A stretch of DNA of 36,695 nt from a virus (IMGVR_UViG_2531839665_000016:1-36695); one strand, 5' to 3'. Shown: positions 17,862-24,008, numbered from the stretch's first letter. Translations and numbers: made by a program. Notes: generated from the letters alone by a model not told the origin.

Positions 17862-18385
17862 ATGTACTCCAATGAAGAAACCAGCGAAATAGCTGCCTTC
17901 ATTCGTAGTAAACCTTTTTCATCAACGCAGTAATGGATTCTTTGAAGAGTCGCAATCAATACAACTCACTAATGGAGAGACTTGTCTCACGCATGAGACA
18001 AATTTCCCGTTTGAATTAATGGACACTATAGAGGGACAGAATGCCTTCCTCACTCGAATCACATCAATTAAGGAAGTTCAACATGTTTCATTCCACAAGT
18101 CATCAGGCTGTAATTATGGCAGCATCAGTTTGTGCCACAGACCTTTTCCGCTTCACTTTGTGCCTGATTCATTTCTACCTGACCGGCTCGCTTCTATCTT
18201 TTTAATCCCCGCTTTATCCAAATTGCATTGCCAGAATGCCGACAACAGACTGACATTCAAATCCTGACTACCTCCAATAGTCTGACCGTACACCTATATA
18301 GTTTTAATTTTCATCAATCCATTTAACTATCGTTTAATTGTTGTCACATAGGATTCTGCCGTTTTTAACAATGCAGGATAATAAG

Positions 18386-18679
18386 ATGAAAAAAATGTTG
18401 TTTTCTGCCGCTCTGGCAATGCTTATTACAGGATGTGCTCAACAGACGTTTACTGTTGGAAACAAACCGACAGCAGTAACACCAAAGGAAACCATCACCC
18501 ATCATTTCTTCGTTTCGGGAATTGGACAGCAGAAAACTGTTGATGCAGCCAAAATTTGTGGCGGCGCAGAAAATGTTGTTAAAACAGAAACCCAGCAAAC
18601 ATTCGTAAATGGATTGCTCGGTTTTATTACTTTAGGCATTTATACTCCGCTGGAAGCGCGGGTGTATTGCTCACAATAA
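18386..18679 (+). CDS. bor: Bor lipoprotein (Bor/Iss family)
   Basis: 97 aa from MKKM; lipobox LITGC; near-identical to my recollection of lambda Bor; AGGA Shine-Dalgarno 7 nt upstream; opposite strand to the lysis genes as in lambda. Confidence 0.9.
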   Translation: MKKMLFSAALAMLITGCAQQTFTVGNKPTAVTPKETITHHFFVSGIGQQKTVDAAKICGGAENVVKTETQQTFVNGLLGFITLGIYTPLEARVYCSQ

Positions 18680-18710: not shown

Positions 18711-19172
18711 CTATCTGCACTGCTCATTAATATACTTCTGGGTTCCTTCCAGTTGTTTTTGCATAGTGATCAGCCTCTCTCTGAGAGTGAAATAATCCCG
18801 TTCAGCGGTGTCTGCCAGTCGGGGGGAGGCTGCATTATCCATGCCGGAGGCGGTGGTGGCTTCACGCACTGACTGACAGACTGCTTTGATGTGCAACCGA
18901 CGACGACCAGCGGCAACATCATCACGCAGAGCATCATTTTCAGCTTTCGCATCAGCTAACTCCTTCGTGTATTTTGCATCGAGCGCAGCGACATCACGTT
19001 GGCGCACCTGCATGTCAGTAATTGTCGAGTTCGCCAGCTTCAGTTCTCTGGCATTTTTGTCGCGCTGGGCTTTGTAGGTAATGGCGTTATCACGGTAATG
19101 ATTAACCGCCCATGACAGACAGACGATGATGCAGATAACCAGAGCGGAGATAATCGCGGTTAATCTGTTCAT
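18711..19172 (-). CDS. Rz: Rz i-spanin
   Basis: 153 aa; N-terminal TM helix and coiled-coil periplasmic domain; lambda Rz-like; overlaps the endolysin stop. Confidence 0.85.
18770..18952 (-). CDS. Rz1: Rz1 o-spanin lipoprotein embedded in Rz (+1 frame)
   Basis: 60 aa; lipobox VVGC; proline-rich; fully embedded within Rz as in lambda. Confidence 0.8.
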
Positions 19173-19645
19173 ACCTCAATCTCTCTGACCATTCCGCCCG
19201 CTTCTTTGAATTTTGCAATCAGGCTGTCAGCCTTATGCTCGAACTGACCATAACCAGCGCCCGGCAGTGAAGCCCAGATATTGCTGCAACGGTCGATAGC
19301 CTGACGAATATCACCGCGATCAATCATCGGTAAAGCGCCACGCTCTTTAATCTGTTGCAGTGCCACAGCGTCCTGGCTTTTCGGAGAGAAGTCTTTCAGG
19401 CCAAGCTGCTTGCGGTAAGCATCCCACCAGCGTGAAAGAAGTTGATAACGGCCTGCAGCTGTTGATTTGAGTTTCGGGTTTAGCGTGACAAGTTTGCGAG
19501 GGTGATCGGAGTAATCAGTGAAGAGTTCTCCACCGACAATAACGTCATAACCGTGGTTACGTGTCGGTTGTCGCCCGTTATCCGTTCCCTCTGACCATGC
19601 CACCATATCCAGGAAAGCTTTACGCTGGGAATTTAGTACCTGCAT
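19169..19645 (-). CDS. R: Endolysin, lambda R-type lytic transglycosylase
   Basis: 158 aa, near-identical to my recollection of lambda R ([34 protein letters not shown]...). Confidence 0.9.
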
Positions 19646-19648
19646 AAA

Positions 19649-19975
19649 TTACTCCTTAGAGCCACCAAACTTGTTACCGATTACTCTCATTGCAGCCCCA
19701 CGAATAGCATCAACACCGATCAGCCCCACCCCACCACCAATGGCAACAGATAGTGATTTAGGCCATCCGACATACTCAAGAGCGGATGCAAAAGTCAGCG
19801 TCAGAGCGCCACAGAGTAGAATTTCGAGTGTTTTTCGCTTCCAGCCGCCACCACCGCCAAAATAGGCAATACGTAAACCAGCCATAACAATCGACATAAT
19901 CACTGCGCCCAGCGGTGTGTCTCCACGCCACCAGCTCTGGACCAACTCCAGCCATGTATTTGGGTTATGAGGCAT
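19649..19975 (-). CDS. Holin
   Basis: 108 aa with two to three hydrophobic helices and a charged C-terminus; immediately upstream of the endolysin; GAGG ribosome-binding site upstream. Confidence 0.7.
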   Translation of the reverse strand: MPHNPNTWLELVQSWWRGDTPLGAVIMSIVMAGLRIAYFGGGGGWKRKTLEILLCGALTLTFASALEYVGWPKSLSVAIGGGVGLIGVDAIRGAAMRVIGNKFGGSKE

Positions 19976-20114
19976 TTGTAGTTATCTCTCACCTCGCTGA
20001 TACAGCAGGTGCAAATTGAGGAAACATCATGTACCGCAAATCAGAAGCGGAAACGTCAAAGAAGCCGAGTCAATGGATAACTGCGGGATAGGCTAGGACC
20101 AAGGAATCCCCAGA

Positions 20115-20149
20115 CCCAGAAACGACAAAACCCGCTCGATGGCGGGTTT
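20115..20149 (-). terminator. Intrinsic terminator on the minus strand, tR'-like (end of a short late leader RNA?)
   Basis: Hairpin AAACCCGC-CATCGA-GCGGGTTT followed by TGTCGTTTCT on the minus strand, upstream of the holin, at the position expected for lambdoid tR'. Confidence 0.45.
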
Positions 20150-20209
20150 AAGCTGTGTGGCGAAGTAAGCACACTTAACAGATTACGATATTTTTTGCGT
20201 ACGCGTTAG

Positions 20210-20266
20210 TGTTTTGATAGAATTTTCAGCCACATAAAAATTCATTCTTATAATTCGGGATATATA
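20210..20266 (+). promoter_or_regulatory. Putative promoter region of the inserted two-gene operon; the late promoter pR' (minus strand) is expected within the same 140-bp interval
   Basis: TTGATA (20214-20219) and a perfect TATAAT (20249-20254) upstream of ATG 20267, but spacing is non-canonical, so this is only a region-level call. GGGA Shine-Dalgarno at 20257-20260. Confidence 0.3.
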
Positions 20267-21442
20267 ATGGATATAACTTGTTTAGAATGTGGCAATGTTC
20301 TTGACGACCCAACTGTAGCTTGCGATAAATGCGGTGCCACGCCTCATGTTGTAGTGCTGGGCAAACAATCGTACTTTCCTATTGGTGCTGTAACAGCAAA
20401 TCTTGAAAAAAATGATTCAAGAGCATTTGATTATCGATTAGGTGAAGTTTGGGATCTAAAAAATGAAGTCACATCTGAATTCATAACCAGAATTGAGAAA
20501 AAATTTAGCCGAAAAAACAAATTTCATAACTTCCTAGACTCAGATCACAACCCTTCATCCATTCCTACGATCCTAAAAAAATACATTAATAAAAATAATG
20601 AATTCATTGATTTATCTAGAGCTATAATAGAGAAGCTTAAACATAATGCTAATAACGAATCGAGAGTTGCCCAACTTCAGGGGGGGAGCGTTGTTTTCAT
20701 CCACTATAAGTCTACCGAACCAGAGGATTTGGGGAAACTTCTAATCGTAATGGTTGATAAACAAAGCGCCTATGACTTTGATTCGGATAAGTTGACCCCA
20801 ACAAGATTAAATCCAATTAATACCGATGCCTTACGGCAGGCTGCGATGTTCGATTTAACTTTATTCGAAGCCAGTTATCCAGAAAACAAGGGTGACTCAT
20901 ATGTACATTTCTTGCAAGGTAAATCTAAAAGCGATTTTTTCAAAGACTCATTAGGTTGCCGACATGATTCGGACAATAAAAGAAGCATTCAGCAATTATT
21001 CAGTGCTATAGATATTTTTGCTAGTAAAAACTCACTCGGTCGTGTACTGCGTGATACTATTGACAATGAAGTTAAATCCTTACTGGAAAAAAAATCAAAA
21101 GATAAACACGGAAATAAGTCCGTTAAGATAGAGGATATTTCAAAAATAATTGACTCATGCCTGACTGATTCACACAAATGTAAGGGAACGTTTGTCGATT
21201 TTGTTAATCTTAATGGTTTCCAGATTGACCCTCAATTTGAACCAACTCCTAAAGCAGCTGAAAGCGCGCTTACAATTGAAGTGGCAGATAACGACAATAA
21301 TTTTAAGTTGAAAATAATGCGTGGAGCTATTGGAGACGAAAAGTCAAATAAGCCTGTAATTCTCACTGACAATAAATGCGAAATTGTGATAAAATTGAGT
21401 CAGGCAAATTATGATGAACTCAAAAGATATAGAGACAGCTAA
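20267..21442 (+). CDS. Zinc-ribbon + YejK/NdpA (NA37)-like nucleoid-associated-protein-family protein; accessory (moron) gene A
   Basis: 391 aa. N-terminal CxxC...CxxC (CLECG...CDKCG). Central region GGSVVFIHY...LIVMV...YVHFLQGKSKSDFFKDSLGC matches my memory of the YejK pattern GGIVLFCHY...YLTFLKG...FFMDFLGA. Lys/Asn-rich, AT-rich coding sequence. Stop overlaps the start of gene B (TAATAATG). Confidence 0.6.
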   Translation: MDITCLECGNVLDDPTVACDKCGATPHVVVLGKQSYFPIGAVTANLEKNDSRAFDYRLGEVWDLKNEVTSEFITRIEKKFSRKNKFHNFLDSDHNPSSIPTILKKYINKNNEFIDLSRAIIEKLKHNANNESRVAQLQGGSVVFIHYKSTEPEDLGKLLIVMVDKQSAYDFDSDKLTPTRLNPINTDALRQAAMFDLTLFEASYPENKGDSYVHFLQGKSKSDFFKDSLGCRHDSDNKRSIQQLFSAIDIFASKNSLGRVLRDTIDNEVKSLLEKKSKDKHGNKSVKIEDISKIIDSCLTDSHKCKGTFVDFVNLNGFQIDPQFEPTPKAAESALTIEVADNDNNFKLKIMRGAIGDEKSNKPVILTDNKCEIVIKLSQANYDELKRYRDS

Positions 21443-21444
21443 TA

Positions 21445-22659
21445 ATGACAATTGCTGATGACTTATCAAGATTAGCGCAGATTATTAACGGAGCCTCAAG
21501 CAGAGTTGAGGGCTACTACACTGTCATAAGTCTTGAAGAAAGCATTGTTATTGTAAATAGTTCTGAAATAATTAGACTGTTACAATCTATAGGTTATAAA
21601 AAGGCAACAACCTGCATCGAAAATAATGAAATTTGGCTAGATCGCCAAGCTTCATCTTGGGATGATGCTATAATTTATGAGAATGTTGAGTCTTTTTGGT
21701 CTAGAGTAAACACCCAAAACGCTCTTCCGAAAAATTATATCATCGGAACGCCGTTAATACTCCCTACTTCTAAGAATGAAAGCATCGAAAAAATCCATAT
21801 TTTCTTTATGTGGAAAGATATCCTTTCATTAATTTCTGATCATCATAACAGTGACTGCTCTGTCTTATTTTTCACCAATGAAGACAAAAGTTATACAGTC
21901 GAACTCACGCATTTTTTACAATATAGCGAGATTAATCGCTTATCGAACTCGTCTCTTAAATATGAAATTATAAAGGAGCTTCTCGACACAATAAAAATCA
22001 ATGATTTACACAAAAGCGAGCGCAAGCTCGTTATACGCTCAGCCATAAACGAAGTATTTAAAGCAAATGGTACGTTCAATTTCTTTGACTTGCTTAACTC
22101 TACTGAACTCGTCAGGAAAAAATATGATGAACTATATGAGATTTACACAAAGAGGTTTTCTGTAAATAAAATTCTTAACGAACTCGATGAGAAAAATCTT
22201 GAGTTCACGAGTAAAATTAACGAATTCATATCATCTAATCAGACAAAAGCATTGACTATTCCCGGTGCATTAATAGCAGCTGGTGGCTTAGTGAAGGCTA
22301 ATGAAACAACCGAAGCAATATTGATTATCGCAGGACTTTGGATGATAAAAAAAGTCAATTACATTTCTATTGAGATATTCAATGAAACATTCGACAACTT
22401 ACGTTCTCGAGTGGAGTCCGCTTTCGATAAGTATTTAAAGTTTGAAGAAAATAAAGAAATCAAAGATAATGCAGATAGTATTAAGAGTAGCATTACAGGT
22501 TTGATTGATAAAGCTAAAAAAAGGATGAGAACTGTTAAATATCTCGCATCAGCCATGTTTTATGGAGGCCTTATTTACGTTGGATATAAACAGTTCCCAG
22601 TCTTTTTTGAAAAATCGGCAGTAAATCTATTTTATTTTTTATGCCATACTATAAGCTAA
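21445..22659 (+). CDS. Hypothetical protein with C-terminal hydrophobic helices; accessory (moron) gene B, putative effector
   Basis: 404 aa, no family recognised. Hydrophobic segments ALTIPGALIAAGGLV...AILIIAGLWMI and YLASAMFYGGLIYVGY near the C-terminus. Translationally coupled to gene A. 3' end overlaps the Q stop convergently by 21 nt. Confidence 0.55.
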   Translation: MTIADDLSRLAQIINGASSRVEGYYTVISLEESIVIVNSSEIIRLLQSIGYKKATTCIENNEIWLDRQASSWDDAIIYENVESFWSRVNTQNALPKNYIIGTPLILPTSKNESIEKIHIFFMWKDILSLISDHHNSDCSVLFFTNEDKSYTVELTHFLQYSEINRLSNSSLKYEIIKELLDTIKINDLHKSERKLVIRSAINEVFKANGTFNFFDLLNSTELVRKKYDELYEIYTKRFSVNKILNELDEKNLEFTSKINEFISSNQTKALTIPGALIAAGGLVKANETTEAILIIAGLWMIKKVNYISIEIFNETFDNLRSRVESAFDKYLKFEENKEIKDNADSIKSSITGLIDKAKKRMRTVKYLASAMFYGGLIYVGYKQFPVFFEKSAVNLFYFLCHTIS

Positions 22660-23010
22660 CATTGCTAAACAGCCATCAACAAACCCCATTGCAGTTTGCA
22701 GTTCCTTCCTAATTGTGCCATCAGAGCATTTTCTCTTCTTCGCAATAGTGCGTAATGAGATACCGATAACAAAGTGGGCGATGATGAGCTCATATTCCTC
22801 TGGTTTATACCTTCTCAACCGAGCCACACAACTGTCTATCATGATGCCTTCGTCATCATCACACTGAATCCGTGACTTTTTGCCATGAGGTAAAAGTCCC
22901 TTGAAACCAGCCGCTATCGGCTGCCAGTCCACTCCGCTATTGTCTGAAGCAGCCCAAGCTCCCCAACGATCCATTACTTCATACATATCACGCATCAACT
23001 TTCTCCACAA
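22639..23010 (-). CDS. Late-gene antiterminator Q (QuuD / phage-82-type Q family)
   Basis: 123 aa; MRDMYEVMDRWGAWAA...IAAGFKGLL...CSDG motif resembles my recollection of DLP12 QuuD; located upstream of the lysis genes. True start may be MRDMYEV at 22995. Confidence 0.75.
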   Translation of the reverse strand: MWRKLMRDMYEVMDRWGAWAASDNSGVDWQPIAAGFKGLLPHGKKSRIQCDDDEGIMIDSCVARLRRYKPEEYELIIAHFVIGISLRTIAKKRKCSDGTIRKELQTAMGFVDGCLAMLAYSMA

Positions 23011-23012
23011 AA

Positions 23013-24008
23013 TCAGGCCAGCACACCAATTGCCAGCGCACGATCGATAAAACGAAATATCAACTCCAGCTGGGAGCCATACTTCTCTTCAAATGCCACG
23101 GTATCCGCATGCAGCTCGTCGTGATGCTTTCTGCACAAAGGCAGCACAAAGAGATCATGCGCTTTTGTACCCATTCCCCCCTGACCGTGGCCTATCAGAT
23201 GGTGGGGATCATCAGCAGGCTTTCCACAACATGCACACGGCTGCGTCTTAACCCAGCGCGTGTACTTTTCATTAACCCAGCGGCGACGTTTTGGGCGTAA
23301 CATAAAAGACTCCGGCGACTCCGGATCCACTTTCAGCGCCAGCACCTTTTTAGCTTTATCCTGGATGATGCTGGTGGCAGGAACCGAAGGCACAAGGTCA
23401 CTTTCCCGGGTGACAGATGGCACAACAGGCTTCGGTAATCTCAGTGCCTTACGGGCTGCACTTTCCGGTAAGGCATCCGCCAGATCATTACGAACCAGCC
23501 ACCAGCACAGTTCCGGCATTGTCACAACGTGACTGTCATCAAAACCGAGATCCCGACGCACGACAGACAACACCCAGCGGGCACAGTTATCCGTTGCCAT
23601 TGATTCCAGCCGTTCCGTGAACTGGTCACGCAGCTGGTTATCGCAGTGCCAGCACAGACGAATTGCTCCCGGAGCGTGCCGCATTGTGGTCATGTTCTCG
23701 CTGTGCCAGTCAGAATGAGGCCACTGACAGCCCTTTTCACGAAGTAACCAGCTTTCAAGACATTCCACGCCACCAGCACGACGGATCACTGCCTCATTGC
23801 GGAACACGGTCCGAACGGCAGGATCATCCGCCAGCGGTTGTGATGCCGCCGGAACGGCACCACTGGCGAAAGATGAATAACGTTCCGGCTCTGGCTCCAG
23901 CAGGACACGCCCCTGCATAAACAGGGGCATCAGCTCTGAACCTGGCCTGAACAATACGATCCCCATACGCGGGGCAATTTCAGGCGTCAGTAGTGCTCTC
24001 ACGGTCAC
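23013..24008 (-). CDS. DUF968-family protein (YdfU/YbcO-like) with C-terminal HNH-like Cys/His motif
   Basis: 331 aa; C-terminal CACCGK...HHLIGH...CRKHHDELH; typical position between nin-region genes and Q in lambdoid prophages. Confidence 0.65.
   Translation of the reverse strand: MTVRALLTPEIAPRMGIVLFRPGSELMPLFMQGRVLLEPEPERYSSFASGAVPAASQPLADDPAVRTVFRNEAVIRRAGGVECLESWLLREKGCQWPHSDWHSENMTTMRHAPGAIRLCWHCDNQLRDQFTERLESMATDNCARWVLSVVRRDLGFDDSHVVTMPELCWWLVRNDLADALPESAARKALRLPKPVVPSVTRESDLVPSVPATSIIQDKAKKVLALKVDPESPESFMLRPKRRRWVNEKYTRWVKTQPCACCGKPADDPHHLIGHGQGGMGTKAHDLFVLPLCRKHHDELHADTVAFEEKYGSQLELIFRFIDRALAIGVLA

Follow-up and report, generated by a model that had tools for sequence, protein, structure and literature searches.

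It is already known that the late genes of these phages form a Q-dependent cassette, that DLP12 and PA-2 carry morons between Q and S, and that 933W possesses a PR' promoter. One of the closest described systems is phage 21 (structures 6P18, 6P19 and 6JNX), the Q of which belongs to Pfam family PF06530. We recovered its late promoter, PR'21, from viral contigs through a 14-mer search for the Q21 element, the hits of which were mostly noise and were filtered. PR'21 lies directly after Q and comprises TTGACA, two TGAGCA repeats at -25 to -12, a -10 element AACACT, the sequence TAAGCT at +2 to +7, and a hairpin with a T7 tract ending at ~+46. This layout agrees with that of Shi et al. (PMC6606751), according to whom Q21 binds between -35 and -10.

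The second relevant system is 933W/VT2-Sakai (Sp5, Sp15). The PR' of Sakai drives stx under Q control, and its start was determined by dRNA-seq at 258 nt upstream of the StxS 3' end; the resulting 258-nt RNA, which stops at a second terminator, is the precursor of StxS (Sy et al., PMC7547250). The Sakai GenBank record contains a putative late promoter (TTTACG, 16 bp, TATCAT), a Q-utilisation site and a terminator, and counting back from the T-tract of the second terminator placed the start at the A 7 nt after TATCAT. Elsewhere, the whole interval between Q and stx has been treated as the 'pR' region' (PMC6266700). The third system comprises DLP12 of K-12 (quuD-nmpC-essD) and PA-2 (Q-lc-S), in which the order is as in the locus described here: Q, a reverse-oriented moron (in their case a porin gene), the homologous block, located upstream of essD in DLP12, and the lysis genes. 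For the MG1655 sequence, we take the offset between versions to be 777 (a 776-bp IS1 plus a 1-bp insertion), so that U00096.2 576452 presumably equals NC_000913.3 577229; this offset agrees with the 1977-bp difference in total length. The Cappable-seq list of Ettwiller et al. (PMC4782308, supplement) gives a start at U00096.2 576452 on the plus strand, which, given this offset, is the A exactly 7 nt after TATGCT. Thus, the Sakai and DLP12 data sets, from two sister subtypes, point to the same homologous start base, and both mapped starts come from subtypes whose Q is only ~46% identical to the Q studied here.

The DNA analysed here (the window) is a stretch of 36,695 nucleotides that carries a lambdoid prophage, in which the late direction is the minus strand. 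Our analysis indicated that positions 20231-20121 probably constitute a compact two-way control module of a Q21-family antiterminator, with a late arm, a cargo arm and a cargo slot. The Q gene (22639-23010, minus strand) is preceded in the late direction by a DUF968 gene (24008-23013, minus strand) and encodes 123 aa with a TTG start, or 118 aa with the ATG at codon 6. The protein matched PF06530 with an E value of 3e-47 (160 bits, cut-off 26), and its direct match to the Q21 structures 6P18 and 6JNX was weak (E = 1e-3). An assignment of PF06530 to the Q82 family was considered and dropped, because Yin et al. (PMC9388147) assign this family to Q21.

Two genes lie on the plus strand beyond Q. 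Gene A (20267-21442) matched NCBIfam NF053868 (DS1_1_antiphage) with 451 bits (cut-off 330) and encodes a YejK/NA37-like nucleoid-associated domain (Pfam PF04245 NA37, E = 1e-23) as well as a CxxC...CxxC motif at the N-terminus. Gene B (21445-22659) matched NF053869 (DS1_2_antiphage) with 375 bits (cut-off 315) and gave no match in Pfam, and neither gene gave a match in PADLOC. Recent RefSeq annotations name this pair anti-phage proteins, and the YejK nucleoid-associated domain is among the newly validated defence domains of DefensePredictor (PMC13092281). Based on the NCBIfam names DS1_1 and DS1_2, we take genes A and B to be the DS-1 system of DefensePredictor. The C-terminus of gene B looks hydrophobic by eye. 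The G+C content of the A-B stretch is ~34%, versus ~50% on both flanks, and the arrangement Q-B-A-holin was also found in 99 complete E. coli genomes.

To place this arrangement in a wider frame, we compared phages with the same Q subtype (74-92% identity), namely SfII, Stx2a_1447, Stx1_132418 and Klebsiella P7641. In these phages, reverse-oriented genes start 0-30 bp from the Q stop; only those of P7641, which are DS-1 homologues, are related to A and B. The sole DNA shared between Q and the late genes was an 89-bp block (20215-20127 in the window), downstream of which we found a methylase, tRNAs and stx2 in one phage, stx1 in a second, and different lysis genes in the remaining ones; Stx2a_1447 and Stx1_132418 have the same block as the window upstream of stx. 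The block goes with Q whatever flanks it, which is the expected appearance of a Q-specific promoter/terminator unit. In addition, when genomes were scanned at one per species, 30 loci were found to carry a Q of this subtype (identity 75-91%). They belong to Escherichia/Shigella, Enterobacter, Klebsiella, Citrobacter, Kosakonia, Pantoea, Erwinia, Serratia and other genera, and were pooled with those of the phages and of the window. Of the 35 loci, 34 (5/5 phages and 29/30 genomes) had a single copy of the block on the Q strand. The distance from the Q stop to the block was 587-2612 bp in all 34 of these loci, and in none was the block next to Q. The interval consisted almost only of reverse-strand ORFs, in 17 different architectures, with the ORFs beginning between -20 and +40 bp relative to the Q stop. 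What had been read from the window as an insert in one prophage is therefore not a one-off event but a fixed architecture, with cargo in 34/34 loci. A few cargos matched candidate defence families (PDC-M53A, PDC-S33, an MBL-fold protein), while most matched nothing. Members of the block family were found in 3696 of 5426 complete E. coli genomes; none of the 40 matches listed had an annotated feature under it.

The borders of the cargo slot are sharp: the left one is the -10 of the cargo promoter described below, and the right one is formed by the last ~10 codons of Q. The right edge (22639-22672) comprises the variable Q tail. Among the Q proteins of 37 loci, the sequence is conserved through ...GF(I/V)(D/E)G, after which the last 6-12 residues vary in sequence and length, and the final ~10 codons (CLAMLAYSMA in the window) change with the cargo. 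Owing to this variability, we set the right border within the Q gene, close to 22672; in addition, blastn similarity to other phages stops at 22668-22685, ~30 nt ahead of the Q stop. Known slots of temperate phages resemble this one in being fixed sites between conserved genes that hold many alternative anti-phage systems. However, they belong to another phage family and another position, whereas the present slot separates an antiterminator gene from the promoter it targets, seems to come with a resident promoter, and contains cargos only some of which match known or candidate defence families.

The initial annotation had placed pR' and qut within 20150-20266, separated from Q, and had proposed that a relative lacking the insert could locate them by alignment. 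VT2-Sakai, whose Q is ~46% identical and of the same Pfam family, has no cargo, and the alignment puts its PR' homologue at 20209-20173 in the window. The homologous stretch of Sakai starts inside the Q 3' end, reads AGTTTACGATCGTAAAAATCTGCATATCATGATAAGAGTGGTTACATTGCCACGCAGTCGAACCCGCCGATGCGCGGGTTTTTTT, and aligns over its full length with the block of the window, CTAACGCGTACGCAAAAAATATCGTAATCTGTTAAGTGTGCTTACTTCGCCACACAGCTTAAACCCGCCATCGAGCGGGTTTT (20209-20121, minus strand). The promoter, the initial transcribed region and the first hairpin are clearly homologous, with a -10 of the form TAnnnT and a start 7 nt downstream. In contrast to Sakai, in which the block overlaps the 3' end of Q, the cargo lies between the two in the window; moreover, the Sakai Q has a 28-aa C-terminal extension that the window Q lacks, and the window has the first hairpin only. 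Consistently, no StxS-type sRNA (a 258-nt transcript, a second terminator and a 74-nt Hfq-binding RNA) was found in the window, and no Rfam family matched. Unlike the window, DLP12 and PA-2 have 189 bp, including two hairpins, between Q and the porin gene; as this gene starts ~375 bp from the block, it probably has its own promoter.

In the window, PR' is not adjacent to Q: 2416 bp separate the Q stop from the module. A conventional position would nevertheless be conceivable, with a late promoter in the conserved part of the Q 3' region or at the Q/B junction, late transcription running antisense through B and A, and the block providing only tR' and the leader. Such an arrangement would match lambda, phage 21 and 933W/Sakai, where PR' is located immediately after the Q 3' end or overlaps it, and only weak 5-bp hairpins are present on the minus strand between Q and 20149. 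However, we consider it extremely improbable. First, the sequence beyond ~22672 is cargo-specific in every phage, so that nothing is conserved directly after Q, where each phage has its own cargo. Second, a pattern scan of 22600-23010, which covers the Q 3' end and the DNA just beyond, found no promoter-like site on the minus strand. Third, what corresponds by homology to the promoter part of the Sakai PR' is 20209-20173, and nothing near Q, and the start sites of both homologues lie within the block. Finally, an invariant TAnnnT and an invariant 16-mer within the block would be left unexplained. Judged from homology with the Sakai and DLP12 promoters and from their start sites at the homologous base, the displacement of PR' from Q to 20209-20173, directly upstream of the hairpin, thus appears largely right, as the initial annotation had anticipated.

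An alignment of 38 loci (+1 = 20173) was used to assign the elements of this promoter. A TAnnnT sequence occupies -12 to -7 in 38/38 loci, in the form of 12 different hexamers; in the window it is TAATCT (20180-20185, minus strand), whose homologues are TATCAT, in the annotated late promoter of VT2-Sakai, and TATGCT, in DLP12. The predicted start region (20171-20177, minus strand) has +1 near 20173 (20172-20174) within TAAG(A/T)GT, the consensus being TAAGAGT and the window sequence TAAGTGT. From -7 to +6, the loci share the nearly invariant TG-n-TAAGAGTGGT; the window reads TAAGTGTGC and differs in having T instead of A at +1 and C instead of G at +5. The -35 position (20208-20203, minus strand) is a poor match (TAACGC or CTAACG). 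Because of this poor -35 and the differences at +1 and +5, the exact start and the strength of the promoter in the window are uncertain. By analogy with lambda and phage 21, AAAAAT (20195-20190) or TATCGT (20190-20185) was also considered as the -10, with TAATCT or TAAGTG as the pause element. This assignment was rejected because the TAATCT site is present in 38/38 loci, while the second TAnnnT (TATCGT, 20190-20185, at -17 to -12) occurs in 24/38, and because both mapped starts fit TAATCT.

The part of the earlier proposal that concerned qut stood only partially, since no classical sigma-dependent pause element was found. Across the 38 loci, there was no conserved -10-like xAnnnT pause element at +1 to +30. 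However, xAnnnT is present at -3 to +3 (AAGAGT) in 36/38 loci, and this sequence is the sole candidate for a sigma-dependent pause element, which would lie earlier than in lambda, 21 and 82. A conserved hairpin (GUGG...CCAC) within the first 20 nt of the PR' RNA was considered as well and discarded, because by eye its pairing is not maintained across loci. Common to phage 21 and the locus described here are a Q of family PF06530, a hairpin with T-tract within ~50 nt of the promoter and a TAAG near the start; the two differ in that the module has its conserved core at -35 to -20 and its only -10-like element close to the start at -3 to +3.

The 16-mer TAACGCGTACGCAAAA (20193-20208, minus strand) occupies -35 to -20 of PR' and was identical in 31 of 34 loci of the Q subtype, from many genera. 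It spans the PR' -35 position and, on the opposite strand, the -35 of the cargo promoter, where it reads TTTTGCGTACGCGTTA and includes TTGCGT. Its core is GCGTACGC in the window, ACGTACGT in DLP12/PA-2 and ACGATCGT in VT2-Sakai. The presumed recognition-helix region of Q is ..IRKEL.. with the window subtype, whereas it is ..IGKRL.. in DLP12/PA-2 and VT2-Sakai; the core thus varies in step with this region, across three classes only. A TGAGCA-type direct repeat, the binding element of Q21, is absent from the module. Because the 16-mer is conserved beyond what a weak -35 needs and its core covaries with the helix region of Q, it is the best candidate for the Q-binding element.

These observations also bear on whether the block might be a genuine promoter of the lysis genes that is independent of Q, responding to RpoE or other host control, with the hairpin as a plain attenuator. 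Such a role would fit the poor -35 for sigma-70, the missing classical pause element in the transcribed region, and the control of the DLP12 SRRz operon, beside Q, by RpoE and Hha, which is cited in PMC7918800; the same source, however, also lists Q control for DLP12. Furthermore, phages of this Q subtype have the block irrespective of the genes that follow it (stx1, stx2 or various lysis genes), the -35/spacer core changes together with the recognition-helix region of Q, and in Sakai the homologous promoter is PR', from which stx is expressed under the control of Q (PMC7547250). A Q-independent promoter is therefore very unlikely, and we prefer to regard the block as the PR' of this Q subtype, on which Q would act.

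Downstream of PR', an intrinsic terminator, candidate tR', was located at 20121-20149 (minus strand), with a hairpin at 20149-20128 followed by a T-tract at 20127-20121. In the pattern scan, the hairpin, AAACCCGCCATCGAGCGGGTTT then TGTCGTTTCT, had 8 pairs, 5 of them G-C. It was the sole terminator-like site between gene A and the holin gene and the strongest minus-strand one between Q and the holin gene, and it lies 118-139 bp away from the gene A start, in agreement with the 'about 140 bp' first noted for a terminator-like hairpin at 20128-20149. On the PR' transcript, the hairpin and T-tract would correspond to ~+25 to +53, and the predicted short RNA folds with -17.8 kcal/mol (z = -2.9 versus shuffles). 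At least 21 of the 38 loci have a perfect-stem hairpin with a T-tract at +24 to +57, and three further loci have one at +67 to +89. The stems vary among loci with compensatory changes while the T-tract is retained, and the recurrence of the hairpin with its block appears to be more than chance. In Sakai, the PR' RNA is reported to end elsewhere than at the homologous first hairpin; thus, the hairpin may terminate inefficiently. The leader between the terminator and the holin start (19976-20120, minus strand) is 92% identical to that of SfII and ~74% identical to those of PA-2 and relatives. No second terminator was found between the hairpin and the holin gene, the fold of the leader is ordinary (z = -1.2), and an Rfam scan of 19600-23100 at a permissive threshold gave chance-level matches only and no known RNA family. 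The first late gene after PR' encodes holin S (19649-19975, minus strand; Pfam PF05106, E = 6e-25), and ORFs are listed in the expected positions of lysozyme (19169-19645, minus strand) and Rz (18711-19172, minus strand).

On the opposite strand, the initial annotation had supposed that the promoter of genes A and B is packed back-to-back with PR'. This is probably so, although the two promoters are interleaved. The predicted resident cargo promoter (20195-20231, plus strand) consists of a -35 TTGCGT (20195-20200), a TG (20215-20216) and a -10 TAGAAT (20218-20223), and the TG-A before TAGAAT makes this an extended -10. The predicted start is near 20229-20231, which would give a leader of ~36 nt with GGGA (20257-20260) before the ATG at 20267. 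A TAnnnT on the cargo strand exactly 17 bp after TTGCGT was found in 24 of 34 distinct loci (TGATAGAAT in the window), whereas each of the other offsets (8 to 33) had TAnnnT in 0-4 loci. The nominal binomial probability for the 17-bp spacing was 5e-24, which is overstated because the loci are related by descent and the counts overstate their independence. The -10 occurs as 15 different hexamers in which T1, A2 and T6 are kept. Each -35 lies inside the spacer of the other promoter, and the two predicted starts are ~57 bp apart; simultaneous occupancy therefore looks impossible. Together, the recurring elements suggest that the slot probably has its own resident divergent promoter, interleaved with PR'.

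It is also possible that the DS-1 operon is driven by a promoter of its own in cargo-specific DNA, rather than by a resident promoter shared with PR'. Mobile cargos usually bring their own promoters, the resident TAnnnT at 17 bp is missing in 10 of the 34 loci, and the scan of the plus strand gave TTGATA (20214-20219), a 16-bp spacer and AAAAAT (20236-20241), matching 9 of 12 positions, as well as a perfect TATAAT at 20249-20254. However, this TATAAT would leave a leader of ~6 nt with no ribosome-binding site. The first cargo ORF usually lies 40-90 nt after the TTGCGT -35 (72 nt in the window), which leaves little room for a separate full promoter in most loci, and the signal at the 17-bp spacing is sharp. 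We regard a promoter brought by the cargo as rather unlikely, though with better prospects than the alternatives for PR' considered above, and favour the resident promoter as the source of cargo transcription.

The initial annotation had also described a tail-to-tail overlap of the two 3' ends, and the ORF coordinates bear this out: Q (23010-22639, minus strand) ends at 22639 and gene B (21445-22659, plus strand) at 22659, so that the genes share the 21 nt of 22639-22659, within the right edge of the slot. Because of this overlap, there is no room for a terminator between Q and B. Over at least 900 nt past gene B, the scan found the cargo strand of the window to be free of intrinsic terminators, and the same held for the other DS-1 loci. 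Polymerase leaving B should therefore enter Q antisense. In ~10 of the 34 loci, which have other cargos, a compact hairpin with a T-tract is present within the 20-45 bp between the cargo stop and the Q stop; termination at this junction means that antisense transcription into Q is not conserved. The antisense-Q RNA would be untranslated and C-rich (GC skew -0.36 to -0.39), and is thus a likely Rho substrate. Both the junction terminators and the C-rich antisense RNA speak against a designed role of the Q/B overlap. In the opposite direction, no good terminator occurs on the minus strand from Q towards the holin gene before 20149, there being three weak 5-bp stems inside the AT-rich cargo. Hence, in lytic growth, the early transcription from which Q is made must traverse B and A in the antisense direction.

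In lambda, paQ is a CII-activated promoter inside Q that gives a short RNA, and it is the closest precedent for antisense control of Q. In both cases, transcription antisense to Q could reduce the output of Q and delay the late genes. However, the antisense RNA predicted in the window would be unterminated read-through of a defence operon, which is not conserved across cargos. Cargo transcription may run into Q, as had been supposed earlier, and one hypothesis is that it couples the cargo to the lysis-lysogeny decision or dampens Q. The contrary view is that the overlap has no regulatory role and is a by-product of the recombination that joins cargos to Q, with Rho ending the cargo transcripts soon after B and Q expression unaffected. 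The junction terminators of ~10/34 loci, the C-rich, G-poor and untranslated plus-strand RNA across Q, and the variable Q tail, which is what a recombination joint would give, all favour this view. Against it stand the at least 900 nt over which the cargo strand lacks an intrinsic terminator, in the window and in all DS-1 loci, the precedent of lambda paQ, and the fact that early transcription through Q must meet cargo transcription head-on in lytic growth. We judge an overlap without a regulatory role to be about as likely as not.

In the late arm of the proposed two-way module, sigma-70 polymerase would start at PR' near 20173 and, without Q, the transcript would end at 20149-20121, giving an RNA of ~50 nt. 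Q, made from the early transcript of a gene 2.4 kb away, would bind the invariant TAACGCGTACGCAAAA core and load onto RNA polymerase shortly after initiation, and the Q-loaded polymerase would pass the terminator into the holin, lysozyme and Rz genes. In the cargo arm, the elements TTGCGT, 17 bp and TG-n-TAGAAT would direct transcription from near 20230 and drive the content of the slot, here the DS-1 genes A and B. Polymerase or Q at one promoter should exclude the use of the other. A more speculative extension, which we consider unlikely as a whole, somewhat more so than a cargo-borne promoter, is that of a plug-in defence slot. The cargo would be on in the lysogen; Q would bind the shared core, fire the late genes and block the cargo promoter, early transcription through Q would run head-on into the cargo, and Q would load via the pause element at -3 to +3. 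If this were true, the prophage would switch off its own defence, possibly one of the abortive-infection type, when entering lysis, and a pause element that straddles the start at -3 to +3 would be a geometry undescribed for lambda, 21 and 82.

Compared with what was already known, the new elements are the fixed order of Q, cargo and PR', the resident divergent promoter, the sharp borders of the slot and the odd geometry of the candidate pause element. Our results place the late promoter of a widespread Q subtype that includes some Stx1 and Stx2 phages, in which this module, and not the DNA adjacent to Q, would drive stx. For antitermination, they raise the question of where Q binds in this subtype and what pauses the polymerase. 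Across 34 species, the slot holds 17 gene sets, comprising one validated defence system, a few candidate families and a majority without matches; because these sets are varied and mostly unmatched, the slot is a practical place to seek new anti-phage systems. In addition, the arrangement offers testable ideas on how a prophage may coordinate the expression of its defence genes with its own lytic switch.

Comparison of the interval between Q, the Q21-family antiterminator gene, and the late promoter PR' revealed 17 gene architectures at 34 loci from many Enterobacterales genera (L009-L038 of the one-genome-per-species survey, together with L001 and L003-L005), and the cargo genes in this slot lie in reverse orientation nearly throughout. 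Across these 34 loci and 17 architectures, a few cargos matched candidate defence families (PDC-M53A, PDC-S33 and MBL-fold), while the majority gave no family match; one 375-aa cargo protein showed a weak resemblance to DS1_1, the family matched by gene A of the anti-phage pair carried in the window. In two genomes, the region from Q through DS-1 to the holin is itself interrupted by an insertion sequence, namely ISKpn26 (IS5-like) in strain JB2 (H31) and IS1 in strain S1-ZIM-01-A (H54).

Some cargos possess a compact hairpin and T-tract on the cargo strand between their stop codon and that of Q, 20-45 bp before the latter; this arrangement was observed at loci L013, L024, L027, L031, L032, L034, L035, L036 and L038. 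No such compact hairpin and T-tract was found between the cargo stop and the Q stop in the DS-1 cargos, including that of the window. On the far side of the lysis genes, and opposed to them, an ORF follows the Rz-position ORF (window 18338-18679, plus strand), and its translation, by our own reading, resembles the lambda lipoprotein Bor. A terminator-like site is present on the same strand about 60 nt past its stop codon (18738-18752).

The likeness of Q21 to sigma region 4 is a published finding. The Q protein of the window (22639-23010) weakly matched models of ECF sigma-factor region 4 (Pfam PF07638, E = 7e-4, and also TIGR02937), which is consistent with that resemblance.

We also examined the start region of the PR' module. 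Relative to the nearly invariant TAAGAGTGG, the window module shows two differences (window 20169-20173): T replaces A at the predicted +1, and C replaces G at +5. This departure creates a longer 5' hairpin (GUGUGC...GCCACAC). A second TAnnnT element, TATCGT, is located at window 20185-20190, overlaps the -10 element by one base, and is found at the homologous positions -17 to -12 in 24 of the 38 loci. It lies 13 bp from TAAGAG, the same spacing as that between the -10 and the pause element in phage 21. Mapped start sites do not account for this second TAnnnT.

In VT2-Sakai, the first hairpin of the PR' transcript (+27 to +49; L007 1986-2008) has the appearance of a strong terminator, and the long form of the PR' RNA StxS is 258 nt, with its 3' end at the second terminator (PMC7547250). 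This leaves two explanations: read-through of the first hairpin, or a roughly 50-nt RNA that escaped detection. For K-12, the Cappable-seq data give the PR' homologue a score of 1.7, far weaker than the score of 90 for a start at U00096.2 576081 (+) (about L006 4359) (PMC4782308). The latter start falls inside the nmpC-essD intergenic region and is separated from the start codon of nmpC by about 33 bp.

The module family, of approximately 100 bp, was detected in 3696 of 5426 complete E. coli genomes, with up to 5 copies per genome, and none of the matches listed from these genomes had an annotated feature under it. Two annotations elsewhere fall on the PR' module: the 'CRP binding site' of the 1986 PA-2 record J02580 (L002 1730-1750) and gp64 of ev207, a 38-aa hypothetical protein (L008 5040-5156). 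Both are probably mis-annotations.
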